Positions 42,155 to 63,914 of a DNA stretch of 64,000 bases are shown here, one piece after another. The DNA is taken from NCBI GenBank assembly GCA_046563655.1, contig CM102287.1:1550001-1614000 (forward strand), read 5' to 3'. The stretch is from Yuukianura sp. NJ FZ-2021. Its lineage: Eukaryota. Within the stretch, counting starts at the first letter, position 1. Each line of letters starts with the position of its first letter. The translations under genes and the position numbers were made by a program. Under the pieces are notes generated by a model. It was not told the DNA's origin, searched no databases, and saw only the letters and a list, made by a program, of their open reading frames with translations.

Positions 42155-42442
42155 GCCCAGAATGACTTCTTTGTCACTTTTTTGCGAAAATATTCAATTT
42201 TTTGCGAAAAAATTGAATTTTTCACCAAAAATTGAGTTCTAGGCACTTTATGTGGTAATCGGACTTAAATTTTCGGATTGCAATATTGTGATCCACCATA
42301 GCCCAGAATGACTCCTTTGTCACTTTTTTTGCGAAAAAATTGAATTTTTTCACCAAAAATTGAGTTCTAGGCACTTTATATGGTGATCGGACTTAAATTT
42401 TCGGATTGCAAAATTGTGATTCAAAGTAGCCCAGAATGACTT

Positions 42443-43804
42443 TGTGAGAGCACAAAAACAGAGCGTCACTTCACAAAGAGCCCTGGACGGCATACGCCAT
42501 CTAGTGAGATTTTGAGTGAAACCTCTGGAAAGATTTCACTCAAAATTCAAACCAAAACTGTTCCCGCACTTTACCGCCGCAGCACCCAGTACTTTTCCAA
42601 GCAAACAGATAGACAAAACTTAAAACTAATTATTCAACTAATTAACGCTAATTACCTAAAACTAAACTATCCTAAAAATTAACTAAAATCCTAATCTACC
42701 TAAATCACTAAACTTCCGTTACCTATCAACTACCTAAACTACCTTAATTAATGGTTGAATGTGCATGGACAAGCATGCCTTTTGGCCTAGAAAGGAGACC
42801 TTGGCCTGCCTTTCCACTGCCAGGCATGCCTTTTCGAGTACACATTGAACCAGGGGGAACCGCTGCTGAATTGATGCTTGAAGGACGACCGGGGACTACT
42901 ACAGGTATTTGCAGAGGTGGCTGGCTTCCAGCCTGCTGCAAGGTGATAGGTTGCTCGGGGTGATCCGGAGCGCCACTTAAAGTTTTCACGTTAAAATCTT
43001 TCGTCGTTAAAGTTTCGTCGTTAAAGTTTTTCACGTTTTCTTTCGCGTTTTCGGTTTTCTGTTCTTTTGTTCACCTTCAGTGACGGGAACTGCGCGTAAT
43101 TCAATTTACTTTTTGTTTCATTCAACGCGCATTAACTGGTAATTGTTTTAAATCAGTTTTCCATCAATTCAAATCAGTTTTAATCAGTTTTTCTCAGTTT
43201 AACTCGGTTTTTCTCAGTTTTTTCCAATTAATTCAATCAATTAACGCTACGCACGCGTACGCGGGTTTTCTAATTAGGATTGTCTCTGGTATTTGAACTC
43301 TGTTTTGCTCACACATTCAATTGGGTCAAAGGTCATTCGTGTTTACGTTTATTTATCTTCGAATCAGCTGACTTCTGGAATTTCTCAATTTCTTTCAATC
43401 ATTTCAAATTCAATTTAAATTAACGAGTCATTAATTGGAGTTTTGGAGTTAAAGTCAATTAGCAATTAAGATTGATTAACTGGAGAGCTTTCTGATTGGT
43501 TAACGGTTTCACGAGTCGAGTTGTCATTTTCTTTGTTGGAAGTCAAAAGTCAAAGGTCAGAGGTCGAGGTCATTGGACTGCGAGGAGAGAGGCCAAATCT
43601 ACGTGCAAATTCTCAGGTTGTTGACCCTTCTGGAGTGTGAAGTGCCTTCTATCGGCCCTTAAGAAAGAAGAAACCCTTTCTTAAGGTGAAACTACTAAGG
43701 GCCCGTCAAGTAAACGTAAGGGATAGCGAACGGAAAGGGCGGGTTTCAGATTAGAGCCGGATTTGTAGCCCTTAATTGGCCACTGGAAAATTCGTATCCT
43801 TACA
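42443..43804 (+). repeat. 5' LTR (1362 bp)
   Basis: TGTGAGAGCAC...TATCCTTACA; direct repeat of 50433-51813. Confidence 0.97.
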
Positions 43805-43806
43805 AG

Positions 43807-43823
43807 TGGGGGCTCAGACGGGA
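43807..43823 (+). promoter_or_regulatory. Primer-binding site, tRNA-Pro-like
   Basis: TGGGGGCTCAGACGGGA lies 2 nt after the 5' LTR. It resembles the tRNA-Pro PBS TGGGGGCTCGTCCGGGAT of MLV, with 3 internal differences. Confidence 0.8.
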
Positions 43824-43882
43824 AACCTTGAGTAGTAGATAGAAGGAACTGACTGAGCAAAAGCGGAAGTAACAATACAAAA

Positions 43883-45322
43883 ATGGCGCCGCGAGGAAAG
43901 AAGAACAAAAGGGCCAGGGCGAGCGTTGACTTTGAGGAGGGGGAGAGTCAGGAGAGAGAATCACGCAGAGGTTCACGCAGTCGCCAGAGTACACCACCTC
44001 CGGCTTTACCTAAAGAACAACCAGTTGTTGACAATCACGTTTCTCAATTAAATGCTGTCGATGCCATGCGCAAAGACATGGACAAACTTAAAGAACAACT
44101 CTCCGGAGTTAATGAACTTAAAGATGATTTGAAAACAATGATGGCACAGTTGGCTTCTTTGTCACTTCCGGTTGCTGAGTCGCGGAATCCGTCTCGAGTC
44201 TTTACCGAGGGGAATTCGGATGAACTTTCGAGTGACGATGAACCCTCGAGTCGTTGCCGTCGGGATTCTTCGGCCAGGCGACCGTCCAAGTCAGGGAATG
44301 TGTTGAAGGGAGGCGACATTAAGGTTCCAAAGTACAGAGGCAGTAAGGACAGGGTTCAGCCGTACGATTTCATTCTGGAGCTCAAAAAATTTCAAAAGAG
44401 TAGGGAGTTGTCGGAGCAGCAGATGCTGGATTTGGTTCTGCCCATTTCCATGGAGGGAGATGCTTCCACGTGGTATCGCTTCATTTGTCATCGGTTATTT
44501 ACTTGGACGGATTTCTGCCGAGAATTCCGAAACAAGTTCGAACCAGCCGATTTCCAGCGTCAACTCTCCAAGGCCATTCTGGATCGGTACCAAGGTAAAG
44601 AAGAGCGACTAACTGACTACATCTTGGCCATGCGCAATCTCTACAACAAGCTGACCTTCTGTCCACCGGAAGAAGAGATTCTGAAGAACATTTGGACACT
44701 TCTACACCCAGATTCTCGTCGCAGACTTGAACAAACTGGAAAACGTTACCGAACTACAATGGAGCTTTACCAAGAAGCATGCAACGTGGAGAAGAGCATC
44801 GAGCAGGACAGGGCCTACAAGGAGCCGGCGACATTTTCTCACATTGATCCAGGATTGGCATTCGCAAAACCAGAACAGACTCAGAACCGACAAGACGACA
44901 ACCGGGGACAACCCCGCAGAGATCATGCTCCCCGCTATCAGAATCAGGGTACTCAGGGCACGCAGGGCTACCAAACTCAGGGACAGCGTCCAGAATCCAA
45001 GCCTGCGCAGACTCAGGACTTGCCAGTTACCAATTCGACACCAAGAACAGAGCAACCAAGGGCTCAAGCACAGCAGAACGGCATTCCTCCGGCAAACAGC
45101 TTCGTTCCTCGCGCCACTCAAGTTTTCAAACCAGCCTACGACCGTCTCTTGCCTCCGGACATGAGACCCAGTATCAATGGCACAGGAGCCGAAGTTCCGA
45201 ACAATTCTCAACACTGTTTCAACTGCAAGGAATCCGGGCATTGGCGCCGAGACTGTCCAAAGCTTCAGAGTACGTCACAGTCGTTGCCCTCGGGAAACGG
45301 CAAAACCCCGGGTCAGCAATAA
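43883..45322 (+). CDS. gag: Gag polyprotein (479 aa): retrotransposon capsid-like region and CCHC zinc knuckle
   Basis: Capsid-like segment (VPKYRGS...GDASTWY...TWTDFCREFRNKF...YQGKEERLTDY) and CFNCKESGHWRRDC. Confidence 0.95.
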   Translation: MAPRGKKNKRARASVDFEEGESQERESRRGSRSRQSTPPPALPKEQPVVDNHVSQLNAVDAMRKDMDKLKEQLSGVNELKDDLKTMMAQLASLSLPVAESRNPSRVFTEGNSDELSSDDEPSSRCRRDSSARRPSKSGNVLKGGDIKVPKYRGSKDRVQPYDFILELKKFQKSRELSEQQMLDLVLPISMEGDASTWYRFICHRLFTWTDFCREFRNKFEPADFQRQLSKAILDRYQGKEERLTDYILAMRNLYNKLTFCPPEEEILKNIWTLLHPDSRRRLEQTGKRYRTTMELYQEACNVEKSIEQDRAYKEPATFSHIDPGLAFAKPEQTQNRQDDNRGQPRRDHAPRYQNQGTQGTQGYQTQGQRPESKPAQTQDLPVTNSTPRTEQPRAQAQQNGIPPANSFVPRATQVFKPAYDRLLPPDMRPSINGTGAEVPNNSQHCFNCKESGHWRRDCPKLQSTSQSLPSGNGKTPGQQ

Positions 45323-48300
45323 GTCCAGCTCCGATCCGGGGAAATCTCCTAACTTCCGTAGCTCCAGATCATCTTACCAATTCCGTTTCAAACTGCAATA
45401 CAGCCGAATCTTTGAGTACCGAAGTAGAGAATTCTCCACCAATAGTTTCTGTCAAAATTCTGAATCAGGCCTTCGAAGCATTGTTAGACACTGGATCGTC
45501 AATTTCTCTTGTGGGAGGTCAAATTTTGCATCTCGTTAAAACATTCAACATTCGTCTTCTAAAATCTCCTCATTCTATTCGTCAGGCAGCGGGTACTTTC
45601 ATCACAGATGAAGCAGTTGACCTCACAGTGGAGTGGCAGGGAGGAAAGTGTAAGCAGCATTTTGTCGTTAGTCCTAATTTGTCTCGTTCTGTGGTCTTGG
45701 GCAGAGATTTTCTTTCAAAGTTTAACGCCGGGGTTTTTCCTTCTGGGTGGTTGATCGGGAGTGATGACCAGCCCAAGTTTTCTTTTTCAAAATCCGAAAC
45801 TGCATTCGATTCAGACCCAAAGAATCTTCCAAATCATGCCAATTCAAAAACCAAAACGTCTCGTCGTCGGAGTGGGCTCAACAGGGGGACCACGAGTGAG
45901 CGCCCTACTGTAGGAAATGTTGGGAAGGGCGGTGATGTGACTCGCACTCATGCGCAGACCCAGGAGTCTGGCACGACGGTGGTCTCCGCTTCCCACTCTT
46001 CTTCGTTGGAGTTGTCAGGTAGTTCGGGCAATGGTCTGCTGGACATGCCGTTCTCAAATTGTGGTTTAGATGAGGGAGATGAGCTTTTGGAGTGCTCCTT
46101 GTCTGAGGGTCTTGAGAATGTTGAACTAATCGACGACTTAATGAAGGGCGTTGACCTTCCGGTTGATCACTCGAGGGAACTGCGGGGAATTATCTCAGAT
46201 TTTTCCAGTATTTTCACGAAAAAGCCGGGTTTCTGTTCTGTTTTTGAGCACCGAATCGACACTGGAGACGCAAAACCGATTTTCTGTCACCCTCGCCCTA
46301 TGACCTCAGTTAAACGAGACATTTTGCTGGACGAACTTGACAAACTGATTGCGAACGACTTGGTGGAGCCAGCGAGAAGTCCTTGGGCTTCCCACGTGCT
46401 ACTGACTCCAAAGAAGAATGGCAGTTTCCGGTTCTGTGTGGACTACCGGGAAGTCAATGCAGTCACGAAGGACGACAAGTACCCAATGCCAAGAATAGAC
46501 GACATTCTCTGTTATCTCTCTCAAGGTCACGTAATGTCAAAGTTTGATCTCTCAGATGGGTTTTTTCAAATCGGTGTGGCGGTCGAGGACCGGCCTAAGA
46601 CAGCTTTCATTACCCCTCGGGGTCTTTACCAATTTAAAAGAACGCCACAAGGGATGAAAAACTCCCCGGCAACGTTCCAAAGAGCCATGGACATGGTGAT
46701 GGACAAGTTGAGATTTAATTGTGTCCTTGGATTTTTCGATGATTTCTTGGTTTTCTCAAAGACGGTAGAAGAACACATGATTCATCTACGTGCTTTCTTT
46801 AAAACAATGTTTGAAGCAGGATTTACCATAAATCCGAAAAAAGTAGCGTTTTGTAAATCTGAAATTGACTTTCTTGGCTATGTCATTGAGGCGGGCAAAT
46901 GTCGTCCCCACCCTGACAAAGTCTCAGCCTTAACGAATTATCAAATTCCTCGAAACGTTAAAGACATTCAAAGATTTTTGGGATTCACTGGATACTATCG
47001 CCAGTTTGTCCCTGATTTCTCCATTAAAGCTGCTCCACTTTCTAAACTTCTTCGGAAGTCTGAAACTTTCAAATGGACTAAAGAATGCCAAGAGGGCTTT
47101 GATTATTTGCGGAAAACACTCCAGTCACAAGTCGAACTCAGTCTACCAGATTTGTCAAAGCCATTTTCAATTCAATGCGATGCCAGCGGACTCGGAATCG
47201 GTGCAGTACTACTCCAAGAGACAGAACAAGGAAGATCTCCAGTTTGGTTCATCAGCCGGAAGCTCAACGGGGCAGAGCTGAATTACTCCATCACAGAGAA
47301 GGAATGTCTCGCCGTAATCTACGCCGTCAAGAAATTCAAAGCGTACCTGGAATTTACCGAATTCACAATCGAAACCGATCATCAAGCGCTGACGTGGCTG
47401 CAGAAAATCAAAGAACCGACGGGACGATTGGCTAGGTGGGCTCTTGAGCTCCAAGGCTACAAGTATCAGATCAAGTACAGGTCAGGCGCACTCAACAGAA
47501 CAGCAGATGCTCTTTCTCGTGCCTTCGAAGTCCTCACACTGGAATCCGACTACATTCCGAACAAAGACGAACTAGCTCATGCACAAATTCAAGACGCAGA
47601 ACTGGGACCAATCATCAAATTTTTGAAGAACGAAGAATTGCCGGCTACGAACTCCAGAGACCACAACAACTACATTGTCCGCCGCGCAGAATCCGCTTTT
47701 GTTGACGAATCTGGCTGTTTGTACAAGTACATTGGGAACATTCACTGTCCGTGGGAAGACGACGGAACCCATTGGCGACTTTGGATTCCACATTCACTCA
47801 GAGAGACTTGCCTACGTCACTTTCATTCCAGTAAAATCGGTGGCCATCTTGGAACATCGAAAACTTACTTGAAGTTGGAGAAAAGAGTCTGGTGGAAGTC
47901 CATGCGCAAAGATACTCAAAATTTCGTCAAAAGTTGTGAAGACTGCCAACTCGCAAAAGCCTGGAAGGTGAAGCCAGCAGGATTTGGGACATCTCCAAAA
48001 GTCAAGCGGCCGTGGGAAAACCTCTACATTGATTTGATGGGCCCTTACACCAGAAGTTCGTTTCAAAACAAGTTTCTTCTCGTCGTGGTTGACAATTTTA
48101 CAAAATGGGTCGAGCTCTTTCCTCTGCGAAGCGGAACAGCAGACGTCGTCACCAAGAAACTTTGGCAAGTTTTCTGTCGCTGGGGATTTCCTTCCACCAT
48201 TGTTGCCGACAACGGACCAGCATTCGGGAAAAGTAACGTGTACAAAGACTTCTGCAAATCTTTTGGTGTCAACGCTCTCTTCATTCCACCTTACCATCCT

Positions 48301-49926
48301 CAACCAAACGTGACTGAGAGATACAACGAAACTTTAAAGTCAATGATAGTTGCGACTATCGAAAAATGTAAAGAATGGGACAGATACTTGGCAGAATTAA
48401 GCTTCGCGCTCAATTCAAGTGTCAATCAAACCATGAAATTTTCTCCAGCTTACTTAAATTTTGGACGGGAGTTGAGAACTCCGTTTGACAATGTTTTGGA
48501 AATTGCGAGTGGTCAAAGTAGTGACACTCAGGAAATGGCTGAAAGAATGAATTACGTTTGGGAATTGGCGAAAGCTAATCAACTTTCTTCTCAAAAAGAT
48601 TACATGTCACAGTACAACAAAAAGAGAAAAGAAGTGACTTATGAGATTGGAGATTTGATTCTGCGTAAATCAAGGGTGTTGTCGAACGCTGCGAAAGGAA
48701 TCACTGCCTCTCTCATGAACAAGTTCGAAGGTCCTTTTGTTGTCGCGGGAAAGAAAAATGAGACAATCCTAATGTTAAACTCAATTGGCGCGAACGAATT
48801 TGTTGGTGAAGTCCATGTTTCTGATTGCCGACCTTTCTATTGTTGCTTCCAGAATGAGCAATCTGAATCCGAACATGATTGTCGGGGGGATTCGACTTGG
48901 GGATTTGGTAATTCCACCAGTGCCGACACGAGAGCCACCTCCAATTGCATTCCCAGTGAATCCGAGCCAGTCCCAGCCTCAACCTCCACCGCCAATTCTT
49001 CCAACGTACTACGCTCCTCCTCCGAAGAAACACAAATTTGTGAGCCGATCCTCAGCACTTCGAGATGCGAAAAAGGCCGATGCCTTCAACACTGCGAGAA
49101 ATCCCAGATGGCAGACCGGGACAATCAAAGTCCAGAATTTCAATTTCAAAACGATGAACGACCACTGGCTCCAGCGTCCTCCTTCCTTCTGTATCGACCC
49201 AGGTGTGATCTCGATTTCCTTCTCCAACGAACCAGGCAAAGATGTGTACAAGAGAGACTTGACTGTTCGCGCTCCAGCCTGGGTGACGACAGATCGGCCT
49301 TACATTCAGCCAAAGGCATACGAACCACCAAAGAAACGCAGCCAAGGACTTCCAATCCGTCAAGTTCAGAAAATCATGGATGTTTTCGAGGCAGAACAGA
49401 AGCAGAAACAAGAAGATGCTCCAATGAATACCTGGCTGAAGTTCGGAGTTCCCAAGGAGAGACAGGTCGAAGCGCTTGTGAACATGGAGGAGTTTTTGGA
49501 GAAGAAGCGGAAGGAAGAACTAGAGCAGCAAAAGCCAGCCAAATTGTCGGCAGTAGCTCAAGCCGCGAAGCAGAAGGCAGCTCTGGAACGGAGGCAGATT
49601 GCCAAGAAAGCTCGACTTCGATCTCCAAGTCCTCCACAGTTCGACCTCTTTGCTCAGCCTCTCAAGTTGACTACTGCCAAAAACCCAAAGACAGTCCAGT
49701 CCAAGTTGTCAGTTCCGGTGAAGCAGATTCCATCATCTACCATTACTTCAGCCGACCTTCCGGTTCCAATGACGGTTCCAAGAACTTCCAAGTCTCCTCC
49801 AAAGAAGAAGCCAGAAGCCACCATCACTCGCCCAGAAGCCCCAATCACTCACCTAGAAGTCCCAAAAGCGGCCCCAATCATTCCATGGGTGAAAATCAAG
49901 AAGGAGAAGGGTATGACCCAGGCTGA
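45241..49926 (+). CDS. pol: Pol polyprotein (protease, RT, RNase H, integrase, plus ~350-aa C-terminal extension), probably made as Gag-Pol by frameshift near 45298
   Basis: Protease LLDTGS; RT FRFCVDYR, FDLSDGFFQI, PQGMKNSPATFQ, FFDD; RNase H CDASGLGIGAVL, NYSITEKECLA, TDHQAL; integrase H..GH..CEDC, IDLMGP, VADNG, TERYN and a GPF motif. No internal stops. Confidence 0.97.
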   Translation: MAPRLSKASEYVTVVALGKRQNPGSAISPAPIRGNLLTSVAPDHLTNSVSNCNTAESLSTEVENSPPIVSVKILNQAFEALLDTGSSISLVGGQILHLVKTFNIRLLKSPHSIRQAAGTFITDEAVDLTVEWQGGKCKQHFVVSPNLSRSVVLGRDFLSKFNAGVFPSGWLIGSDDQPKFSFSKSETAFDSDPKNLPNHANSKTKTSRRRSGLNRGTTSERPTVGNVGKGGDVTRTHAQTQESGTTVVSASHSSSLELSGSSGNGLLDMPFSNCGLDEGDELLECSLSEGLENVELIDDLMKGVDLPVDHSRELRGIISDFSSIFTKKPGFCSVFEHRIDTGDAKPIFCHPRPMTSVKRDILLDELDKLIANDLVEPARSPWASHVLLTPKKNGSFRFCVDYREVNAVTKDDKYPMPRIDDILCYLSQGHVMSKFDLSDGFFQIGVAVEDRPKTAFITPRGLYQFKRTPQGMKNSPATFQRAMDMVMDKLRFNCVLGFFDDFLVFSKTVEEHMIHLRAFFKTMFEAGFTINPKKVAFCKSEIDFLGYVIEAGKCRPHPDKVSALTNYQIPRNVKDIQRFLGFTGYYRQFVPDFSIKAAPLSKLLRKSETFKWTKECQEGFDYLRKTLQSQVELSLPDLSKPFSIQCDASGLGIGAVLLQETEQGRSPVWFISRKLNGAELNYSITEKECLAVIYAVKKFKAYLEFTEFTIETDHQALTWLQKIKEPTGRLARWALELQGYKYQIKYRSGALNRTADALSRAFEVLTLESDYIPNKDELAHAQIQDAELGPIIKFLKNEELPATNSRDHNNYIVRRAESAFVDESGCLYKYIGNIHCPWEDDGTHWRLWIPHSLRETCLRHFHSSKIGGHLGTSKTYLKLEKRVWWKSMRKDTQNFVKSCEDCQLAKAWKVKPAGFGTSPKVKRPWENLYIDLMGPYTRSSFQNKFLLVVVDNFTKWVELFPLRSGTADVVTKKLWQVFCRWGFPSTIVADNGPAFGKSNVYKDFCKSFGVNALFIPPYHPQPNVTERYNETLKSMIVATIEKCKEWDRYLAELSFALNSSVNQTMKFSPAYLNFGRELRTPFDNVLEIASGQSSDTQEMAERMNYVWELAKANQLSSQKDYMSQYNKKRKEVTYEIGDLILRKSRVLSNAAKGITASLMNKFEGPFVVAGKKNETILMLNSIGANEFVGEVHVSDCRPFYCCFQNEQSESEHDCRGDSTWGFGNSTSADTRATSNCIPSESEPVPASTSTANSSNVLRSSSEETQICEPILSTSRCEKGRCLQHCEKSQMADRDNQSPEFQFQNDERPLAPASSFLLYRPRCDLDFLLQRTRQRCVQERLDCSRSSLGDDRSALHSAKGIRTTKETQPRTSNPSSSENHGCFRGRTEAETRRCSNEYLAEVRSSQGETGRSACEHGGVFGEEAEGRTRAAKASQIVGSSSSREAEGSSGTEADCQESSTSISKSSTVRPLCSASQVDYCQKPKDSPVQVVSSGEADSIIYHYFSRPSGSNDGSKNFQVSSKEEARSHHHSPRSPNHSPRSPKSGPNHSMGENQEGEGYDPG
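45292..45341 (+). promoter_or_regulatory. -1 programmed ribosomal frameshift signal
   Basis: G GGA AAC heptamer at 45292-45298, in gag phase. After a 7-nt spacer, CCCCGGGTC (45306-45314) pairs with GATCCGGGG (45333-45341). Pol is in the -1 frame. Confidence 0.88.
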
Positions 49927-50179
49927 GGCTCCCAGACGACCTCCGAAGCTTTCCCGAGCCGACGTTGCAGATGATGACCTTCTGGAGAAGTGGAACTTCG
50001 GCGATGGAGTCAGCGCCTTCCTTCATCCTGCACTCCACCGTGGAATTGAGACGCTGACTCAAATCGAGGGATTGGAAGTTCTGGAGAAAGAGGGTAGAGA
50101 TAACTTCAGGATCAATGGAAAAATTCGAATGATGAAGAAGGAGAAATTTGGGTTCAAGGACTCGGATGAAGACGATTGA
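48854..50179 (+). CDS. ORF3: basic, Pro/Lys-rich accessory protein of unknown function (~441 aa from ATG 48854; frame open from 48785), not env-like
   Basis: Long ORF in the env position, overlapping pol in the +1 frame. No signal peptide or transmembrane segment is evident. It has several NLS-like clusters (PPKKHK, PPKKRS, PPKKKP) and is followed by an AT-rich 3'UTR. Confidence 0.75.
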   Translation: MSNLNPNMIVGGIRLGDLVIPPVPTREPPPIAFPVNPSQSQPQPPPPILPTYYAPPPKKHKFVSRSSALRDAKKADAFNTARNPRWQTGTIKVQNFNFKTMNDHWLQRPPSFCIDPGVISISFSNEPGKDVYKRDLTVRAPAWVTTDRPYIQPKAYEPPKKRSQGLPIRQVQKIMDVFEAEQKQKQEDAPMNTWLKFGVPKERQVEALVNMEEFLEKKRKEELEQQKPAKLSAVAQAAKQKAALERRQIAKKARLRSPSPPQFDLFAQPLKLTTAKNPKTVQSKLSVPVKQIPSSTITSADLPVPMTVPRTSKSPPKKKPEATITRPEAPITHLEVPKAAPIIPWVKIKKEKGMTQAEAPRRPPKLSRADVADDDLLEKWNFGDGVSAFLHPALHRGIETLTQIEGLEVLEKEGRDNFRINGKIRMMKKEKFGFKDSDEDD

Positions 50180-50419
50180 AGACATCGTTTCCTTTTCCAG
50201 TTAATGGTCATTTTTCAAATTAATTCTATCTTGTTTCCTTGCCTTCTAAGTTAGTACTCAAGAGGATTCTTCAAGTTTTTCAATTTATTCAATTATAAAT
50301 TCAGTTCTAAGTAAGAAATACTTAAATTTTTCCAAACAATTTAGAGTCACAGTTACTTTGTAAATAGTATTAGAGTCTGCTAAATAATATTTCTCAACAC
50401 GATGACTTTCGGGCCAATT

Positions 50420-50431
50420 GGAGGGGGGAAG
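50420..50431 (+). promoter_or_regulatory. Polypurine tract
   Basis: GGAGGGGGGAAG, 1 nt before the 3' LTR. Confidence 0.92.
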
Positions 50432-50432
50432 T

Positions 50433-51813
50433 TGTGAGAGCACAAAAACAGAGCGTCACTTCACAAAGAGCCCTGGACGGCATACGCCATCTAGTGAGAA
50501 TTTGAGTGAAACCTCTGGAAAGATTTCACTCAAAATTCAAACCAAAACTGTTCCCGCACTTTACCGCCGCAGCACCCAGTACTTTTCCAAGCAAACAGAT
50601 AGACAAAACTTAAAACTAATTATCCAACTAATTAACGCTAATTAACTTAAACTAAAATATCCTACAAATTAACTAAAATCCTAATCTACCTAAATCACTA
50701 AAGTTCCGTTACCTATCAACTACCTAAACTACCTTAATTAATGGTTCAATGTGCATGGACAAGCATGCCTTTTGGCCTAGAAAGTAGACCTTGGCCTGAC
50801 TTTCCACTGCCATGCATGCCTTTTCCAGTATACGTTGAACCAGGGGGAACCGCTGCTGAATTGATGCGTGAAGGACGACCGGGGACTACTACAGGTATTT
50901 GCAGAGGTGGCTGGCTTCCAGCCTGCTGCAAGGTGTTTGGTTGCTCGGGGTGATCCGGAGCGCCACTTAAAGTTTTCACGTTAAAATTCTTTTTCGTCGT
51001 TAAAGTCGTTTTCGTCGTTAAAGTTTTCGCGTTTTCTTTCGCGTTTTCGGTTTTCTGTTCTTTTGTTCACCTTCAGTGACGGGAACTGCGCGTAAATCAA
51101 TTTCTTTTTGTTTCATTCAACGCGCATTAACTTGTAATTGTTTTAAATCCGTTTTCCATTAATTCAAATCAGTTTTAAATCAGTTTTAATCGGTTTTTCT
51201 CAGTTTGATTCAGCTTTTATCGATTTTTCACAATTAATTCAATCAATTAACGCTACGCACGCGTACGCGGGTTTTCTAATTAGGATTGTCTCTGGTATTT
51301 GAACTCTGTTTTGCTCACACATTCAATTGGGTCAAAGGTTATTCGTGTTTACGTTTATTTATCTTCGAATCAGCTGACTTCTGGAATTTCTCAATTTCTT
51401 TCAATCATTTCAAATTCAATTTAAATTAACGAGTCATTAATTGGAGTTAATTGGAGTTTTCGGTCACCTAGCAATTAAGATTGATTAACTGGAGAGCTTT
51501 CTGATTGGTTAACGGTTTCACGAGTCGAGTTGTCATTTCCTTTGTTGGAAGTCAAAAGTCAAAGGTCAGAGGTCGAGGTCATTGGACTGCGAGGAGAGAG
51601 GCCAAATCTACGTGCAAATTCTCAGGTTGTTGACCCTTCTGGAGTGTGAAGTGCCTTCTATCGGCCCTTAAGAAAGAAGAAACCCTTTCTTAAGGTGAAA
51701 CTACTAAGGGCCCGTCAAGTAAACGTAAGGGATAGCGAACGGAAAGGGCGGGTTTCAGATTAGAGCCGGATTTGTAGCCCTTAATTGGCCACTGGAAAAT
51801 TCGTATCCTTACA
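50433..51813 (+). repeat. 3' LTR (1381 bp)
   Basis: TGTGAGAGCAC...TATCCTTACA, followed by TSD ACTT and resumption of the interrupted monomer. Confidence 0.97.
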
Positions 51814-54800
51814 ACTTCTTTGTCACTTTTTTTGCAAAAAAAATTGAATTTTTCCCTAAAAATTGAGTTCTAGGCACTAGGTGATCGGACTAAAATTTTC
51901 GGATTGCAAAATTGTGATCCACCGCAGCCCAGAAGGACTTTGTCACTTTTTTTTGCAAAAAAATTGTATTTTTTCACCAAAAATTGAGTTATAGGCACTT
52001 TATGTGGTTATCGGACTTAAATTTTCGGATTGAAAAATTGTGATCCAACGTAGCCCAGAATGACTTTGTCCCTTTTTTTGCAAAAAAATTGAATTTTTTC
52101 ACCAAAAATTGAGTTCTAGGCACTTTATATGGTTATCGGACTTAAATTTTCGGATTGCAATATTGTGATCCACCATAGCCCAGAATGACTCCTTTGTCAC
52201 TTTTTTTGCGAAAAAATTGAATTTTTTCACCAAAAATTGAGTTATAGGCACTTTATATGGTTATCGGACTTAAATTTTTGGATTGAAAAATTGTGATCCA
52301 ACGTAGCCCAGAATGACTTTGTCCCTTTTTTTTGTAAAAAAATTGAATTTTTTCACCAAAAATTGAGTTCTAGGCACTTTATGTGGTGATCGGACTCAAA
52401 TTTTCGGATTGCAAAATTGTGATCCAACGTAGCCCAGAATGACTTCTTTGTCACTTTTTTTGCGAAAAAATTGAATTTTTTCACCAAAAATTGAGTTCTA
52501 GGCACTTTATATGGTGATCGGACTTAAATTTTCTGATTGCAAAATTGTGATTCAAAGTAGCATAGAATGACTTCTTTGTCACTTTTTTTGCAAAAAATTG
52601 AATTTTTTCACCAAAAATTGAGTTATAGGCACTTTATATGGTTATCGGACTTAAATTTTCGGATTGAAAAATTGTGATCCAACGTAGCCCAGAATGACTT
52701 TGTCCCTTTTTTTGCAAAAAAAATTGAATTTTTTCACCAAAAATTGAGTTCTAGGCACTTTATGTGGTGATCGGACTCAAATTTTCGGATTGCAAAATTG
52801 TGATCCAACGTAGCCCAGAATGACTTCTTTGTCACTTTTTTTGCGAAAAAATTGAATTTTTTTCACCAAAAATTGAGTTCTAGGCACTTTATATGGTGAT
52901 CGGACTTAAATTTTCTGGATTGCAAAATTGTGATTCAAAGTAGCATAGAATGACTTCTTTGTCACTTTTTTTGCAAAAAAATTGAATTTTTTCACCAAAA
53001 ATTGAGTTCTAGGCACTTTATGTGGTGATCGGACACAAATTATCGGATTGCAAAATTGTGATCCAACATAGCCCAGAATGACTTCTTTGTCACTTTTTTT
53101 TGCGAAAAAATTGAATTTTTTGCGAAAAAATTGAATTTTTTGCGAAAAAATTGAATTTTTTCACCAAAAATTGAGTTCCAATCACTTTATGTGGTGATCG
53201 GGCTTAAATTTTCTGATTGCAATATTGTGATCCACCATAGCCCAGAATGACTCCTTTCTCACTTTTTTTGCGAAAAAATTGAATTTTTTCACCAAAAATT
53301 GAGTTATAGGCACTTTATATGGTGATCGGACTTAAATTTTCGGATTGAGAAATTGTGATCCAACGTAGCCCAGAATGACTTTGTCCCTTTTTTTGGAAAA
53401 AAATTGAATTTTTTGCGAAAAAATTGAATTTTTTCACCAAAAATTGAGTTATAGGCACTTTATATGGTGATCGGACTTAAATTTTTGGATTGAAAAATTG
53501 TGATCCAACGTAGCCCAGAATGACTTTGTCCCTTTTTTTGTAAAAAAATTGAATTTTTTCACCAAAAATTGAGTTCTAGGCACTTTATGTGGTGATCGGA
53601 CTCAAATTTTCGGATTGCAAAATTGTGATCCAACGTAGCCCAGAATGACTTCTTTGTCACTTTTTTTGCGAAAAAAATTGAATTTTTTCACCAAAAATTG
53701 AGTTCTAGGCACTTTATATGGTGATCGGACTTAAATTTTCGGATTGCAAAATTGTGATTCAAAGTAGCATAGAATGACTTCTTTGTCACTTTTTTTGCAA
53801 AAAATTGAATTTTTTCAGCAAAAATTGAGTTATAGGCACTTTATATGGTTATCGGACTTAAATTTTCGGATTGAAAAATTGTGATCCAACGTAGCCCAGA
53901 AGGACTTTGTCCCTTTTTTTTGCAAAAAAATTGAATTTTTTCACCAAAAATTGAGTTCTAGGCACTTTATGTGGTGATCGGACTCAAATTTTCGGATTGC
54001 AAAATTGTGATCCAACGTAGCCCAGAATGACTTCTTTGTCACTTTTTTTGCGAAAAAATTGAATTTTTTCACCAAAAATTGAGTTCTAGGCACTTTATAT
54101 GGTGATCGGACTTAAATTTTCTGATTGCAAAATTGTGATTCAAAGTAGCATAGAATGACTTCTTTGTCACTTTTTTTGCAAAAAAATTGAATTTTTTCAC
54201 CAAAAATTGAGTTATAGGCACTTTATATGGTGATCGGACTTAAATTTTTGGATTGAAAAATTGTGATCCAACGTAGCCCAGAATGACTTTGTCCCTTTTT
54301 TTGTAAAAAAAATTGAATTTTTTCACCAAAAATTGAGTTCTAGGCACTTTATATGGTGATCGGACTTAAATTTTCTGATTGCAAAATTGTGATTCAAAGT
54401 AGCATAGAATGACTTCTTTGTCACTTTTTTTGCAAAAAATTGAATTTTTTCACCAAAAATTGAGTTATAGGCACTTTATATGGTGATCGGACTTAAATTT
54501 TTGGATTGAAAAATTGTGATCCAACGTAGCCCAGAATGACTTTGTCCCTTTTTTGTAAAAAAAATTGAATTTTTTCACCAAAAATTGAGTTCTAGGCACT
54601 TTATGTGGTGATCGGACTCAAATTTTCGGATTGCAAAATTGTGATCCAACGTAGCCCAGAATGACTTCTTTGTCACTTTTTTTGCGAAAAAATTGAATTT
54701 TTTCACCAAAAATTGAGTTCTAGGCACTTTATATGGTGATCGGACTTAAATTTTCTGATTGCAAAATTGTGATTCAAAGTAGCATAGAATGACTTCTTTG

Positions 54801-57800
54801 TCACTTTTTTTGCAAAAAATTGAATTTTTTCAGCAAAAATTGAGTTATAGGCACTTTATATGGTTATCGGACTTAAATTTTCGGATTGAAAAATTGTGAT
54901 CCAACGTAGCCCAGAATGACTTTGTCCCTTTTTTTTGTAAAAAAATTGAATTTTTTCACCAAAAATTGAGTTCTAGGCACTTTATGTGGTGATCGGACTC
55001 AAATTTTCGGATTGCAAAATTGTGATCCAACGTAGCCCAGAATGACTTCTTTGTCACTTTTTTGCGAAAAAATTGAATTTTTTCACCAAAAATTGAGTTC
55101 TAGGCACTTTATATGGTGATCGGACTTAAATTTTCTGATTGCAAAATTGTGATTCAAAGTAGCATAGAATGACTTCTTTGTCACTTTTTTTGCAAAAAAA
55201 TTGAATTTTTTCACCAAAAATTGAGTTATAGGCACTTTATATGGTTATCGGACTTAAATTTTCGGATTGAAAAATTGTGATCCAACGTAGCCCAGAATGA
55301 CTTTGTCCCTTTTTTTGCAAAAAAAATTGAATTTTTTCACCAAAAATTGAGTTCTAGGCACTTTATGTGGTGATCGGACTCAAATTTTCGGATTGCAAAA
55401 TTGTGATCCAACGTAGCCCAGAATGACTTCTTTGTCACTTTTTTTGCGAAAAAATTGAATTTTTTCACCAAAAATTGAGTTCTAGGCACTTTATATGGTG
55501 ATCGGACTTAAATTTTCTGATTGCAAAATTGTGATTCAAAGTAGCATAGAATGACTTCTTTGTCACTTTTTTTGCAAAAAAATTGAATTTTTTCACCAAA
55601 AATTGAGTTCTAGGCACTTTATGTGGTGATCGGACACAAATTATCGGATTGCAAAAATTGTGATCCAACATAGCCCAGAATGACTTCTTTGTCACTTTTT
55701 TTGCGAAAAATTGAATTTTTTGCGAAAAAATTGAATTTTTTCACCAAAAATTGAGTTCCAATCACTTTATGTGGTGATCGGGCTTAAATTTTCTGATTGC
55801 AATATTGTGATCCACCATAGCCCAGAATGACTCCTTTCTCACTTTTTTTGCGAAAAAATTGAATTTTTTCACCAAAAATTGAGTTATAGGCACTTTATAT
55901 GGTGATCGGACTTAAATTTTCGGATTGAGAAATTGTGATCCAACGTAGCCCAGAATGACTTTGTCCCTTTTTTTGAAAAAATTGAATTTTTTGCGAAAAA
56001 ATTGAATTTTTTCACCAAAAATTGAGTTATAGGCACTTTATATGGTGATCGGACTTAAATTTTTGGATTGAAAAATTGTGATCCAACGTAGCCCAGAATG
56101 ACTTTGTCCCTTTTTTTGTAAAAAATTGAATTTTTTCACCAAAAATTGAGTTCTAGGCACTTTATGTGGTGATCGGACTCAAATTTTCGGATTGCAAAAA
56201 TTGTGATCCAACGTAGCCCAGAATGACTTCTTTGTCACTTTTTTTGCGAAAAAATTGAATTTTTTCACCAAAAATTGAGTTCTAGGCACTTTATATGGTG
56301 ATCGGACTTAAATTTTCTGATTGCAAAATTGTGATTCAAAGTAGCATAGAATGACTTCTTTGTCACTTTTTTTGCAAAAAAATTGAATTTTTTCAGCCAA
56401 AAATTGAGTTATAGGCACTTTATATGGTTATCGGACTTAAATTTTCGGATTGAAAAATTGTGATCCAACGTAGCCCAGAATGACTTTGTCCCTTTTTTTG
56501 CAAAAAAATTGAATTTTTTCACCAAAAATTGAGTTCTAGGCACTTTATGTGGTGATCGGACTCAAATTTTCGGATTGCAAAATTGTGATCCAACGTAGCC
56601 CAGAATGACTTCTTTGTCACTTTTTTTGCGAAAAAATTGAATTTTTTGCGAAAAAATTGAATTTTTTTCACCAAAAATTGAGTTATAGCCACTTTATATG
56701 GTTATCGGACTTAAATTTTCGGATTGAAAAATTGTGATCCAACGTAGCCCAGAATGACTTTGTCCCTTTTTTTGCAAAAAAATTGAATTTTTTCACCAAA
56801 AATTGAGTTCTAGGCACTTTATATGGTGATCGGACTCAAATTTTCGGATTGCAAAATTGTGATCCAACGTAGCCCAGAATGACTTTGTCCCTTTTTTTGT
56901 AAAAAAAATTGAATTTTTTCACCAAAAATTGAGTTCTAGGCACTTTATGTGGTGATCGGACTCAAATTTTCGGATTGCAAAATTGTGATCCAACGTAGCC
57001 CAGAATGACTTCTTTGTCACTTTTTTTGCGAAAAAATTGAATTTTTTCACCAAAAATTGAGTTCTAGGCACTTTATATGGTGATCGGACTTAAATTTTCT
57101 GATTGCAAAATTGTGATTCAAAGTAGCATAGAATGACTTCTTTGTCACTTTTTTTGCAAAAAAATTGAATTTTTTCAGCAAAAATTGAGTTATAGGCACT
57201 TTATATGGTTATCGGACTTAAATTTTCGGATTGAAAAATTGTGATCCAACGTAGCCCAGAATGACTTTGTCCCTTTTTTTGCAAAAAAAATTGAATTTTT
57301 TCACCAAAAATTGAGTTCTAGGCACTTTATGTGGTGATCGGACTCAAATTTTCGGATTGCAAAATTGTGATCCAACGTAGCCCAGAATGACTTCTTTGTC
57401 ACTTTTTTTGCGAAAAAATTGAATTTTTGCGAAAAAATTGAATTTTTTCACCAAAAATTGAGTTATAGCCACTTTATATGGTTATCGGACTTAAATTTTC
57501 GGATTGAAAAATTGTGATCCAACGTAGCCCAGAATGACTTTGTCCCTTTTTTTGCAAAAAAATTGAATTTTTTCACCAAAAATTGAGTTCTAGGCACTTT
57601 ATGTGGTGATCGGACTCAAATTTTCGGATTGCAAAATTGTGATCCAACGTAGCCCAGAATGACTCCTTTCTCACTTTTTTTGCGAAAAAATTGAATTTTT
57701 TCACCAAAAATTGAGTTATAGGCACTTTATATGGTGATCGGACTTAAATTTTCGGATTGAGAAATTGTGATCCAACGTAGCCCAGAATGACTTTGTCCCT

Positions 57801-60431
57801 TTTTTTGGAAAAAAATTGAATTTTTTGCGAAAAAATTGAATTTTTTCACCAAAAATTGAGTTATAGGCACTTTATATGGTGATCGGACTTAAATTTTTGG
57901 ATTGAAAAATTGTGATCCAACGTAGCCCAGAATGACTTTGTCCCTTTTTTTGTAAAAAAATTGAATTTTTTCACCAAAAATTGAGTTCTAGGCACTTTAT
58001 GTGGTGATCGGACTCAAATTTTCGGATTGCAAAATTGTGATCCAACGTAGCCCAGAATGACTTCTTTGTCACTTTTTTTGCGAAAAAATTGAATTTTTTT
58101 CACCAAAAATTGAGTTCTAGGCACTTTATATGGTGATCGGACTTAAATTTTCTGATTGCAAAATTGTGATTCAAAGTAGCATAGAATGACTTCTTTGTCA
58201 CTTTTTTTGCAAAAAAATTGAATTTTTTCAGCAAAAATTGAGTTATAGGCACTTTATATGGTTATCGGACTTAAATTTTCGGATTGAAAAATTGTGATCC
58301 AACGTAGCCCAGAATGACTTTGTCCCTTTTTTTTGTAAAAAAATTGAATTTTTTCACCAAAAATTGAGTTCTAGGCACTTTATGTGGTGATCGGACTCAA
58401 ATTTTCGGATTGCAAAATTGTGATCCAACGTAGCCCAGAATGACTTCTTTGTCACTTTTTTTGCGAAAAAATTGAATTTTTTTCACCAAAAATTGAGTTC
58501 TAGGCACTTTATATGGTGATCGGACTTAAATTTTCTGATTGCAAAATTGTGATTCAAAGTAGCATAGAATGACTTCTTTGTCACTTTTTTGTTGAAAAAA
58601 ATTGAATTTTTTCACCAAAAATTGAGTTATAGGCACTTTATATGGTTATCGGACTTAAATTTTCGGATTGAAAAATTGTGATCCAACGTAGCCCAGAATG
58701 ACTTTGTCCCTTTTTTTGCAAAAAAATTGAATTTTTTCACCAAAAATTGAGTTCTAGGCACTTTATGTGGTGATCGGACTCAAATTTTCGGATTGCAAAA
58801 TTGTGATCCAACGTAGCCCAGAATGACTTCTTTGTCACTTTTTTTGCGAAAAAATTGAATTTTTTCACCAAAAATTGAGTTCTAGGCACTTTATATGGTG
58901 ATCGGACTTAAATTTTCTGATTGCAAAATTGTGATTCCAAAGTAGCATAGAATGACTTCTTTGTCACTTTTTTTGCAAAAAAATTGAATTTTTTCACCAA
59001 AAATTGAGTTCTAGGCACTTTATGTGGTGATCGGACACAAATTATCGGATTGCAAAATTGTGATCCAACATAGCCCAGAATGACTTCTTTGTCACTTTTT
59101 TTGCGAAAAAATTGAATTTTTTGCGAAAAAATTGAATTTTTCACCAAAAATTGAGTTCCAATCACTTTATGTGGTGATCGGGCTTAAATTTTCTGATTGC
59201 AATATTGTGATCCACCATAGCCCAGAATGACTCCTTTCTCACTTTTTTTTGCGAAAAAATTGAATTTTTTCACCAAAAATTGAGTTATAGGCACTTTATA
59301 TGGTGATCGGACTTAAATTTTCGGATTGAGAAATTGTGATCCAACGTAGCCCAGAATGACTTTGTCCCTTTTTTTGGAAAAAATTGAATTTTTTTGCGAA
59401 AAAATTGAATTTTTTCACCAAAAATTGAGTTATAGGCACTTTATATGGTGATCGGACTTAAATTTTTGGATTGAAAAATTGTGATCCAACGTAGCCCAGA
59501 ATGACTTTGTCCCTTTTTTTGTAAAAAAAATTGAATTTTTTCACCAAAAATTGAGTTCTAGGCACTTTATGTGGTGATCGGACTCAAATTTTCGGATTGC
59601 AAAATTGTGATCCAACGTAGCCCAGAATGACTTCTTTGTCACTTTTTTTGCGAAAAAATTGAATTTTTTCACCAAAAATTGAGTTCTAGGCACTTTATAT
59701 GGTGATCGGACTTAAATTTTCTGATTGCAAAATTGTGATTCAAAGTAGCATAGAATGACTTCTTTGTCACTTTTTTTGCAAAAAAATTGAATTTTTTCAG
59801 CAAAAATTGAGTTATAGGCACTTTATATGGTTATCGGACTTAAATTTTCGGATTGAAAAATTGTGATCCAACGTAGCCCAGAATGACTTTGTCCCTTTTT
59901 TTGCAAAAAAATTGAATTTTTTCACCAAAAATTGAGTTCTAGGCACTTTATGTGGTGATCGGACTCAAATTTTCGGATTGCAAAATTGTGATCCAACGTA
60001 GCCCAGAATGACTTCTTTGTCACTTTTTTTGCGAAAAAATTGAATTTTTTGCGAAAAAATTGAATTTTTTTCACCAAAAATTGAGTTATAGCCACTTTAT
60101 ATGGTTATCGGACTTAAATTTTCGGATTGAAAAATTGTGATCCAACGTAGCCCAGAATGACTTTGTCCCTTTTTTTGCAAAAAAATTGAATTTTTTCACC
60201 AAAAATTGAGTTCTAGGCACTTTATGTGGTGATCGGACTCAAATTTTCGGATTGCAAAATTGTGATCCAACGTAGCCCAGAATGACTCCTTTGTCACTTT
60301 TTTTGCGAAAAAATTGAATTTTTTGCGAAAAAATTCAATTTTTTCACCAAAAATTCAGTTCTAGGCACTTTATGTGGTGATCGGACTTAAATTTTCGGAT
60401 TGCAAAATTGTGATCCAACATAGCCCAGAAT

Positions 60432-60714
60432 CAAGGTAAATAGAATACTTATAGGTACGGTCGTTGAAAATTGTTTGTTCAAAACTGAGTTGCTATGGGA
60501 TTTCTTTGACTCCGAGTTCACTCATTTACAGTGTTGTTCAAAATTTTCAGCATTTTAGTCTCAATACTTTCGCCGCAAACTTAAAAATAGCTTAAAAACT
60601 CGGATGAACCTGTATTTTCACTCGGAGTGACGTCACTGTGAGTGAAATTGTAAACAGGTAATAAAGATAATAAAGAATCGGTTTTGGTCGCTAAGGCATT
60701 TTTGCCGCCCCCTG
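60432..60714. mobile_element. MITE-like insert, copy 5
   Basis: Near-identical to copy 4, with GCCCAGAAT flanks. Confidence 0.75.
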
Positions 60715-63700: not shown

Positions 63701-63914
63701 GCACTTTATGTGGTGATCGGACTCAAATTTTCGGATTGCAAAATTGTGATCCAACGTAGCCCAGAATGACTTCTTTGTCACTTTTTTTGCGAAAAAATTG
63801 AATTTTTTGCGAAAAATTGAATTTTTTCACCAAAAATTCAGTTCTAGGCACTTTATGTGGTGATCGGACTTAAATTTTCGGATTGCAAAATTGTGATCCA
63901 ACATAGCCCAGAAT

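Follow-up and report, generated by a model that had tools for sequence, protein, structure and literature searches.

Long same-strand overlaps between genes are a hallmark of compact viruses, and extra sequence after the integrase of a retrotransposon can serve in targeting, as the targeting motif of Ty5 does. Passages of two accounts of HBV (PMC9093120, PMC3618453) describe how the polymerase spacer lies for about 1 kb over PreS/S, a distinct protein read from the other frame of the same strand; the hepadnavirus spacer is variable and for a long time passed for no more than a tether. In Cer1, a Ty3/gypsy element of C. elegans, CERV is presented in passages of PMC10309623 as a fast-diverging, lineage-specific, non-envelope protein in the env position, made from a spliced mRNA with one exon in a frame other than that of the polyprotein. 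The LTR retrotransposons of bdelloid rotifers, according to the main text of PMC5408684, carry family-specific ORF3s after pol, coiled-coil proteins among them, typically expressed from spliced messages, and passages of PMC3059260 describe the chromodomain of CRM elements as extra sequence past the GPY/F-type module of the integrase. Viral overprinting, as outlined in passages of PMC8227390, lays a new frame over an older gene, with a younger product that is prone to disorder and compositionally odd, and with asymmetric constraint on the two frames. No case of a long same-strand overlap in LTR retrotransposons was found in the portions of the literature searched, and the word "overlap" is absent from the main text of PMC5408684 and from the passages of PMC10309623.

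The window (the whole stretch of 64,000 nucleotides analysed here) contains a retrotransposon in which a third gene, ORF3, shares its sequence with a long terminal tail of the pol frame. As in hepadnaviruses, this is a reverse-transcribing element with about 1 kb of same-strand overlap and a variable polymerase-frame part. The HBV spacer, however, is internal, and its openness is explained by the RT and RNase H downstream, whereas the present tail is terminal with nothing recognisable after it; the polymerase-frame part is here apparently the younger frame, and there is no sequence relationship to HBV. Like CERV, ORF3 is lineage-specific, fast-diverging, non-envelope and located in the env position, but the alternative-frame exon of CERV overlaps gag, while ORF3 overlaps the integrase tail, and general searches revealed no homology. 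With the bdelloid elements it shares a non-env third ORF following pol, although ORF3 has no enzymatic domain. In contrast to the modules of chromoviruses, CRM and Ty5, the tail has no chromodomain, shows no residue constraint and sits on top of another gene. Finally, the usual viral overprinting involves a new internal start, whereas the present case would be a C-terminal extension of pol through a moved stop, in a retrotransposon, and, unlike typical viral overprinted pairs, it has a young frame whose residues show no sign of selection.

The element is an intact 9.4-kb Ty3/gypsy LTR retrotransposon with a third gene (42443-51813). The assignment follows from two TG...CA LTRs, a short target-site duplication, a putative primer-binding site and a polypurine tract adjoining the LTRs, a gag with a CCHC knuckle and a pol with the order PR-RT-RNase H-IN (Pfam RVP, RVT_1, RT_RNaseH, Integrase_H2C2 and rve, in this order, in a pol frame of 1692 residues). 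Its features are the following:

42439..42442 (5' copy) and 51814-51817 (3' copy), + strand: target-site duplication ACTT, read at both LTR edges.
42443..43804, + strand: 5' LTR (TG...CA), from direct repeats, ends read.
43807..43823, + strand: putative primer-binding site, beginning TGG, placed by its position directly after the 5' LTR.
43883..45322, + strand: gag, first ATG to stop (Pfam Retrotrans_gag 4.9e-08, zf-CCHC 1.7e-06).
44848..48840, + strand: pol up to the end of integrase homology (...VHVSDCRPF), from Pfam domains and phmmer alignment ends.
48815..50179, + strand: ORF3, 454 aa, +1 relative to pol, homologous to the +1 ORFs of the relatives L001 and L002, with a dN/dS of 0.24 between these two.
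48815..49923, + strand: dual-coding overlap, 1109 nt from the ORF3 ATG, or 1145 nt stop to stop from 48779.
48841..49926, + strand: pol-frame tail, 361 codons and TGA, with no stops against 17-23 expected, no Pfam family above threshold and no homologue found.
49927..50176, + strand: ORF3-only C-terminal part, 83 codons, from the translations.
50420..50431, + strand: polypurine tract GGAGGGGGGAAG, read directly upstream of the 3' LTR.
50433..51813, + strand: 3' LTR, from direct repeats, ends read.

The two LTRs are 95.45% identical over 1385 blastn columns (40 mismatches, 7 gap openings). A satellite of 128-bp AT-rich monomers surrounds the element, and the target-site duplication falls inside a monomer. 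The gag frame is open from 43853, and pol is in the -1 frame relative to gag. The sequencing runs listed for the element comprise four of DNA type and none of RNA. Contigs from sequencing runs of organism A indicate a high-copy family; upstream of 43807, similarity is lost in contigs from other sequencing runs. Contigs of organism B match 47914-48926 and then again from about 49710, with no cover in between, and from about 49710 onward they are at least 80% alike to the element. One X1 contig skips 48926-49252 (325 nt). An Rfam search of the element found nothing.

Recomputing the frames bore out an earlier note on this DNA: the pol frame, open over 44848-49926, ends within ORF3 at a TGA (49924-49926), and past it the pol frame meets the six stops inside ORF3 that the note had listed, at 49972, 49975, 50047, 50095, 50101 and 50167. 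The end of integrase homology, which the note had set at about 48840, is likewise matched by phmmer, where most alignments stop at RPF (residues 370-385 of a query beginning at 47725). The +1 frame is open over 48779-50179, with its first ATG at 48815, which is formed where CAT-GTT encodes His-Val in the VHVS motif of the integrase, and its stop at 50177-50179; the third frame holds 23 stops across the same overlap. The tail of the window is acidic and Ser-rich, with 17 Cys, while the ORF3-only part holds a motif, (E/K)-W-(N/H)...D-(L/F)...(F/Y), recognised on visual inspection of the window and of L001, L002 and L003. These relatives are metagenome contigs; L001 and L002 (71% integrase identity) have the same architecture, with tails of 314 and 332 codons, and the tail of L003 has 156 codons.

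Avoidance of stops in the tail frame is strict. With the ORF3 protein fixed, 18.2-22.7 pol-frame stops are expected in 381 codons of the window and none is seen. Shuffling the synonymous codons of ORF3 never produced a stop-free pol frame of such length under any of four null models (0/5000 shuffles each), in line with the reading of the earlier note, and across all shuffle runs, with 17.1-22.7 stops expected, zero was reached in 0 of 3000-5000 shuffles. T occupies 79 of 359 third positions of ORF3 in the window, but none of the 96 that precede AA, AG or GA codons; at such junctions it is also missing from L001 (0/84), L002 (0/85) and L003 (0/48). Nor do these sister lineages have stops soon after VHVSD-RPF, which by the earlier note would have counted against the overlap: their tails are open, with no stops against 13.6-16.0 expected in L001, 12.7-15.7 in L002 and 6.7-9.0 in L003 (0/3000 shuffles in each case). 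From its terminal stop onward, and with that stop counted, the pol frame accumulates 7 stops in 84 codons in the window, 9 in 55 in L001, 4 in 55 in L002 and 7 in 60 in L003. When the 311 differences between L001 and L002 were placed at random, 10.6-11.1 pol-frame stops resulted and 0/2000 runs were stop-free. Some shortage of stops is also found in the untranslated -1 frames of the element, where the pol core has 39 (59.7 expected) and gag 19 (27.3 expected); since this depletion is only of about 30%, a general junction bias does not explain the absence of stops from the tail. Stops have been purged from the tail frame in the four lineages, and it follows that ribosomes most likely translate the tail. 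The reverse test, with the tail protein fixed, is weak: 2.0-4.3 ORF3-frame stops are expected, as +1 stops seldom arise from hydrophilic codons, and 16-592 of 5000 shuffles had none. The reality of ORF3 rests therefore on comparative data, and not on its openness.

Constraint in each frame was estimated from one pair, L001/L002, with the Nei-Gojobori method, which does not model overlap. Inside the overlap, ORF3 has a dN/dS of 0.24 (dS 1.28), against 0.23 (dS 1.33) in the ORF3-only part, a control region of just 54 codons; its dS is thus not lowered by the overlap. The pol tail has a dN/dS of 0.96, to be set against 1.18 in the non-coding third frame and 0.048 in the integrase, and amino-acid identity between the two relatives is 91.9% in the integrase, 55.6% in ORF3 and 39.6% in the tail. 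The same picture is given by the differences per pol codon position 1/2/3, where pol position 1 corresponds to ORF3 position 3: these are.060/.032/.313 in the integrase,.463/.265/.278 in the overlap and.556/.264/.189 in the ORF3-only part. The overlap contains five indels, each of a length divisible by 3. Tail codons at about 42-57 have a pol-like pattern (2/3/8 differences per position), in small counts and adjoining an indel. Among own-family variants, drawn from 40 of 494 variant sites, pol position 3 is affected in 8/8 of the best-supported ones listed for RT-IN (46272-47607), and ORF3 position 3 in 2/2 of the best-supported ones listed for the overlap. ORF3 is under purifying selection and the tail is neutral at residue level. 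Of two properties expected of a functional overlapping gene pair, frames open beyond chance are seen in both, whereas purifying selection on residues is absent from the tail in the one pair compared. The suggestion of the earlier note that both frames are maintained thus holds for openness and fails for residues, the tail lying close to the third frame in dN/dS (0.96 vs 1.18) and retaining 39.6% identity.

The distribution of the two frames bears on their relative age. Half of 48 loci (24) were analysed, and 6 of these, with a broken integrase frame, were set aside; in 10 of the remaining 18, an ORF in the +1 frame begins at the integrase end and runs to 89 aa or more. The other clade of the tree holds 13 loci with pol tails of 1-92 codons, and in one locus, L008, an ORF3 of 458 aa has an overlap of merely 118 nt. 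Tails of at least 156 codons occur, in the set analysed, only in the window, L001, L002, P0003 and L003, and tail length over the +1 ORF forms a series of 2, 39, 92, 156, about 190, 314-332 and 361 codons. Codon frequencies in the ORF3 frame correlate with those of the gag/pol core at r.43-.49, and those of the tail frame at r.22-.28. The ORF3 of the window is similar to those of L001 and L002 (E 6e-11 and 2e-11), while its tail has no detectable similarity to theirs (E 0.045 and 0.45). As distant relatives have the +1 ORF but short pol tails (2-92 codons), ORF3 probably came first, and the tail is probably a younger overprinting extension of pol. The earlier note had the integrase tail overprinted by ORF3; the constraint on ORF3 (0.24), the wider distribution of a +1 ORF at this position and the confinement of the long tail to one subclade argue that the polarity is probably the reverse, with the tail overprinting ORF3. 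Because hhalign detected no ORF3 homology between subclades (probabilities of 0.06-1%), the ancestry of ORF3 is read from position and frame, and independent captures of the subclade ORF3s are possible. The match of the L003 ORF3 to those of L001 and L002 (blastp E 1e-3 and 9e-5, with no composition correction and in Lys/Glu-rich sequence) was not relied on.

What the tail is kept for admits several explanations. The earlier note had favoured a new integrase targeting module, the Ser/Arg-rich tail, steering insertion to satellite or centromeric chromatin. In its favour, the copy analysed does sit in AT-rich satellite DNA (128-bp monomers) and is flanked by a clean target-site duplication, ACTT; selection keeps the tail frame open; and the tail of the window ends in SPRSPNHSPRSPK, whose resemblance to the Pol II CTD repeat is weak and below threshold (E 0.037). 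Disorder in an integrase tail does not preclude the action of short motifs, the Ty5 targeting domain being an example, and a short linear motif may be present here. A single insertion in the window, however, says nothing on satellite enrichment; the tail has the dN/dS of a non-coding frame (0.96), the tail of the window has no similarity to those of L001 and L002, and its SPRSP repeat is missing from both. The note was right that the tail is not a chromodomain (even at E values as high as 1, the window, L001 and L002 gave none), and no other Pfam family rose above threshold in these tails. A homologue search with the tail as a region of pol returned no protein at the thresholds and length ranges used, and neither a conserved C-terminal tail motif nor a downstream pol-frame domain was found. 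Against an MCMC null in which the ORF3 protein and codon set were fixed and stops disallowed, the tails show an excess of acidity (z -2.7 to -4.0) and of Ser/Thr/Pro residues (z 3.2 to 4.6). The same bias, in the same direction, appears in untranslated, stop-filled -1 frames (gag, the pol core, ORF3-only sequence of L005, L008 and L014, and L002 pol), and the excess was therefore not counted as evidence of composition-level selection on the tail. Taken together, these data make the targeting module improbable.

An open but unconstrained tail would also be explained if it were a linker: a +1 shift near the pol stop would then fuse integrase and tail with the C-terminal segment of ORF3 that is conserved. 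In 4/4 lineages pol terminates at a TGA with G as the next base, 55-84 codons short of the end of ORF3 and immediately upstream of the conserved C-terminal motif. Yet agreement on TGA among three or four related lineages carries no significance, the four pol stops showed neither a slippery nor a pause motif in common, a search of Rfam gave no element, and ORF3 is equally constrained upstream of the pol stop, implying that it is translated in its own right; such a fusion appears quite improbable. Residue neutrality with strict stop avoidance would also fit a selection on ribosome transit instead of on a protein, through a shorter untranslated 3' part or the masking of ORF3 signals on unspliced RNA. 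Farther upstream, where pol overlaps the end of gag, its frame likewise lacks stops over 157 codons (none vs 6.7 expected; 1/3000 shuffles). Most ribosomes, nonetheless, end at the gag stop some 4.6 kb upstream, from which we reason that any effect on RNA surveillance should be small, and L008 copes with 1225 nt of ORF3 past its pol stop, so that transit on its own is an unlikely account. Lastly, one frame only might be real, ORF3 being open by chance in a hydrophilic tail, as the 0.3-12% of stop-free shuffles per single lineage would allow, or the pol frame being open from the composition of ORF3, given the general depletion of about 30% in the -1 frames of these elements. But the ORF3 frame is open in all four lineages and runs 55-84 codons past the pol stop with all indels in frame, it shows third-position periodicity and a dN/dS of 0.24 within the overlap, and no stop-free pol frame emerged in 3000-5000 shuffles of four lineages or in 2000 divergence simulations. 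This possibility is very remote.

As for its product, the ORF3 protein of the window is basic and Pro-rich and has no hydrophobic segment (maximum Kyte-Doolittle 19-residue mean 0.92; 0.92-1.45 across four ORF3s), and neither a transmembrane anchor nor fusion-protein homology, the marks of an envelope, was found. No Pfam family, and hence no enzymatic domain, was above threshold for 10 ORF3s; the best E among PDB sequences was only 0.13; an Atlas search gave no usable match and no model of the protein; and IMG/VR contained no relative. Neither the ORF3 sequence nor an ORF3 profile found a homologue among 5.8 billion predicted proteins at the thresholds and length ranges used. Contigs encoding ORF3 homologues are public, although the predicted-protein sets hold none. 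Comparative sequence evidence marks ORF3 as a genuine accessory gene that evolves fast and does not encode an envelope; its message, if env and Cer1 CERV are a guide, is presumably spliced or else initiated internally.

The explanation that we consider probable is thus that a conserved accessory ORF3 has been overprinted by a younger pol tail, which is kept open yet residue-neutral and is likely translated. In the subclade of the window, the pol stop would have moved some 150-360 codons downstream across ORF3, giving Gag-Pol a long integrase tail at its end, translated in the -1 frame relative to ORF3. Premature termination would be harmful, and selection would have removed every tail-frame stop, while the residues of the tail would follow whatever ORF3 dictates. 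The tail would then act as a disordered appendage or spacer, rather than as a folded targeting domain, and its openness may be needed for a property of length or bulk, for a short motif near its end or for ribosome transit. It is a rather doubtful proposition that the integrase gained some 360 new codons by a shift of the pol stop and that, over a divergence of about one synonymous change per site, continuity was guarded and no residue, either because translation through ORF3 is itself selected or because the segment is newborn and has yet to gain a function that depends on its sequence.

The case of ORF3 also carries a warning for annotation, as a gene that is real here is missed by gene callers, given the absence of homologues among 5.8 billion predicted proteins despite public contigs. 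More generally, the series of tail lengths could show the stepwise growth of an overprinted frame, and the combination of strict stop avoidance with residue neutrality makes this family a clean case for what selection sees in young overlapping frames.

The window holds a complete Ty3/gypsy LTR retrotransposon in which the pol frame runs on, as a 361-codon tail, past the end of integrase homology and beneath a second open frame, ORF3. All features lie on the + strand:

42443-51813, +, complete Ty3/gypsy LTR retrotransposon (LTRs, target duplication, primer-binding site, polypurine tract)
42443-43804, +, 5' LTR, 1362 bp, TG start, CA end
50433-51813, +, 3' LTR, 1381 bp, TG start, CA end
to 45322, +, gag (Retrotrans_gag, CCHC)
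44848-49926, +, open pol frame, -1 to gag (PR, RT, RNase H, IN zinc-binding domain, IN core)
48779-50179, +, open ORF3 frame (+1), first ATG at 48815 (frame translation)
49924-49926, +, pol-frame stop TGA (frame translation)

The element is flanked on both sides by a 4-bp target duplication (ACTT), with a putative primer-binding site starting in TGG after the 5' LTR and a polypurine tract before the 3' LTR. ORF3 is read in the frame of gag, with pol at -1 relative to each. The element is the sole interruption in ~60 kb of a satellite array (1599-41871 and 51814-63914; 32% G+C) with a monomer of ~128 bp, variants of ~148 bp and higher-order periods of 253-276 bp, which fills nearly all of the remaining window. 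Ahead of it, positions 1-1400 carry a distinct, GC-richer sequence (40% G+C) with an Asp-rich coding-like stretch, which has no similarity to the gypsy element and probably belongs to another mobile element. The LTRs are 95.45% identical (40 mismatches and 7 gap openings over 1385 columns), and despite this divergence neither gag, the 1692-codon pol frame nor ORF3 is broken. Neutral LTR decay since insertion would entail several frameshifts within the element; conversion between copies may have played a part, as may chimeric assembly within a family of high copy number (word depth 200-600).

Homology to integrase extends to VHVSDCRPF, near 48840, and nearly all of the best 150 phmmer alignments against 1.84 billion representatives stop there (query residues 370-385). 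The earlier note had reported that the pol frame nonetheless stays open over ORF3, and this observation is borne out. The ORF3 protein was held fixed while synonymous codons were permuted, codons were drawn from gag/pol usage or codon order was shuffled; 18.2-22.7 pol-frame stops are then expected per 381 codons, and none of 5000 shuffles under any model reproduced the observed zero. Of 359 third positions in ORF3, 79 are T; among the 96 followed by a codon starting in AA, AG or GA, none is. The third frame of the overlap has 23 stops, and six further pol-frame stops fall directly past the pol stop, over the remaining 83 ORF3 codons. Untranslated -1 frames of the same element do contain fewer stops than expected (39 vs 59.7 in the pol core, 19 vs 27.3 in gag), but this general deficit of ~30% is not an absence. 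Upstream, too, across the 3' third of gag and its CCHC knuckle (44848-45322), 157 codons of the pol frame lack a stop; this zero, against 6.7 expected and matched in 1 of 3000 shuffles, is only marginal once the general depletion is allowed for. The reverse test, with the tail protein fixed, is weak: it predicts just 2.0-4.3 stops in the ORF3 frame, and 0.3-12% of shuffles have none, since a hydrophilic sequence seldom has T at the second codon position. On its own, the window demonstrates maintenance of the open pol frame but not the reality of ORF3.

Relatives extend the open frame to four lineages. A scan of metagenome contigs yielded 48 loci with DNA, of which 24 were analysed (near-full integrase match, at least 35% identity); the integrase frame is broken in six and intact in 18, and 10 of these 18 carry, from the integrase end, a +1 ORF that is 89 aa or longer. 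Two loci, L001 and L002, share 71% integrase identity with the window, and their pol tails measure 314 and 332 codons; their +1 ORFs (391 and 409 aa) start 64 nt before the integrase end, overlap the tail by 943 and 997 nt, and continue 166 nt beyond the pol stop in each. A third, L003 (48%), has a 156-codon tail above a 228-aa +1 ORF. With ORF3 fixed, 13.6-16.0 (L001), 12.7-15.7 (L002) and 6.7-9.0 (L003) pol-frame stops are expected; none is observed in any of them, a result matched by 0 of 3000 shuffles each, and T is absent from all at-risk junctions (0/84, 0/85 and 0/48). Between L001 and L002, 311 of the 927 aligned overlap sites differ. When differences equal in number and kind were scattered randomly, with ORF3 stops forbidden, 10.6-11.1 pol-frame stops resulted, and none of the 2000 runs was free of them; active maintenance has therefore kept the pol frame open while these lineages diverged substantially. 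The pol stop context is TGA-G in all four lineages, with no shared slippery motif seen at it.

Which protein is under selection is a separate matter, and here the two frames part company.

Divergence between L001 and L002: differences per pol codon position (1/2/3) and Nei-Gojobori dN/dS.
Integrase:.060/.032/.313; pol frame, dN/dS 0.048 (dS 0.84)
Overlap:.463/.265/.278; ORF3 frame, dN/dS 0.24 (dS 1.28); pol tail frame, 0.96; third frame (non-coding control), 1.18
ORF3-only part:.556/.264/.189; dN/dS 0.23 (dS 1.33)

Since pol position 1 is ORF3 position 3, periodicity in the overlap tracks ORF3, as in the ORF3-only part, and ORF3 synonymous sites, which are tail first codon positions, are not slowed inside the overlap. 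All five overlap indels are multiples of three (21, 42, 6, 6, 9), against 12, 1 and 1 in the non-coding DNA downstream. Amino-acid identity falls from 91.9% in integrase to 55.6% in ORF3 and 39.6% in the tail, which is altered at almost every codon across long identical ORF3 blocks. The window ORF3 is homologous to those of L001 and L002 over more than 300 residues (E 6e-11 and 2e-11), but the tails show no recognisable homology (E 0.045 and 0.45). Among the few variants of the window's family displayed from run contigs, 8 of 8 in RT-IN (46272-47607) fall at pol third positions and 2 of 2 in the overlap at ORF3 third positions. Of the proposal that both frames are maintained, openness therefore stands, but conservation of the tail residues does not.

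Three observations point to ORF3 as the older frame, reversing the earlier view that it overprints the tail. Of the two overlapping frames, selection acts on residues in ORF3 only. ORFs in the +1 frame at the integrase end occur widely, and long tails are restricted to the window's neighbourhood in the integrase tree. Codon frequencies correlate with those of the gag/pol core at r.43-.49 in the ORF3 frame and.22-.28 in the tail frame, in three of three elements. Homology between ORF3s of different subclades was not detected, so their wide distribution is positional only. The window's partners in the tree are L001/L002 (support 100/100), joined next by library protein P0003 (93/95); L003 lies nearby without resolved placement, and in the other clade, of 13 rows, tails measure 1-92 codons. 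More distant +1-ORF loci have short tails, as in L008 (39 codons, ORF3 of 458 aa, overlap 118 nt). The closest library proteins, P0002, P0003 and P0004 (integrase identity 67%, 54% and 47%), have post-integrase tails of ~335, ~190 and ~150 residues with no similarity to the window tail; several related library proteins derive from JGI metagenome contigs, and the species-named matches are from two springtail species. In locus L014 (3098-4750) a 551-aa third ORF lies in the +2 frame, not +1, and its -1 frame has 13 stops vs 27.6 expected (z -4.0). In two outgroup loci, L026 and L027 (35-36% integrase identity), the pol tail runs to 127 codons with no sizeable overlapping ORF, so long tails are possible without an ORF3 beneath.

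The 454-aa ORF3 product is basic (net +25), with 12% proline, one Cys and an acidic end; searches for a family, a structure or an Atlas neighbour gave none. It has no hydrophobic segment (hydropathy maximum over 19 residues 0.92) and is not an envelope protein. The ORF3 ATG spans CAT-GTT, two codons of the integrase VHVS motif, and is kept in L001 and L002. By eye, a small motif past the pol stop recurs in ORF3 of the window, L001, L002 and L003; contigs from a second organism, B, match the element once more from ~49710. The tail is acidic (net -9), with 18% Ser and 17 Cys, and in composition looks like an out-of-frame product. Its acidity and Ser/Thr/Pro bias exceed the stop-free permutation null, yet also occur in untranslated -1 frames, and were discarded as evidence. 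At 49823-49850 a tail repeat of SPRSPNHSPRSPK reads as PEAPITHLEVPKAAP in the ORF3 frame, and one contig of run X1 has a back-joint there with 14 extra letters, which suggests a short tandem repeat varying in copy number within the family. Being open but not conserved, the tail lends no support to the targeting module for satellite or centromeric chromatin that had been proposed; a short motif in it is possible.

A limited open-access text search found no description of a pol/ORF3 overlap this long in an LTR retrotransposon. Third ORFs of LTR elements are described as usually expressed from spliced messages (PMC5408684), and CERV, a non-envelope accessory protein of the Cer1 element that is partly read in an alternative frame, is reported to be made from one (PMC10309623). 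By analogy, ORF3 would presumably come from a spliced or internally initiated message. Unspliced RNA would give Gag and, by a -1 shift, Gag-Pol with an integrase ending in the long tail. The closest parallel is the spacer of the hepadnavirus polymerase, which lies over PreS and whose open frame is explained by the domains downstream of it (PMC9093120, PMC3618453). The purging of stops from the tail frame indicates that termination there is costly, implying translation, and the freedom of its residues places that cost outside a folded domain. What is kept may instead be length or a bulk property, a short motif close to the tail's end, the passage of ribosomes, or a shift that leads into the C-terminal part of ORF3.
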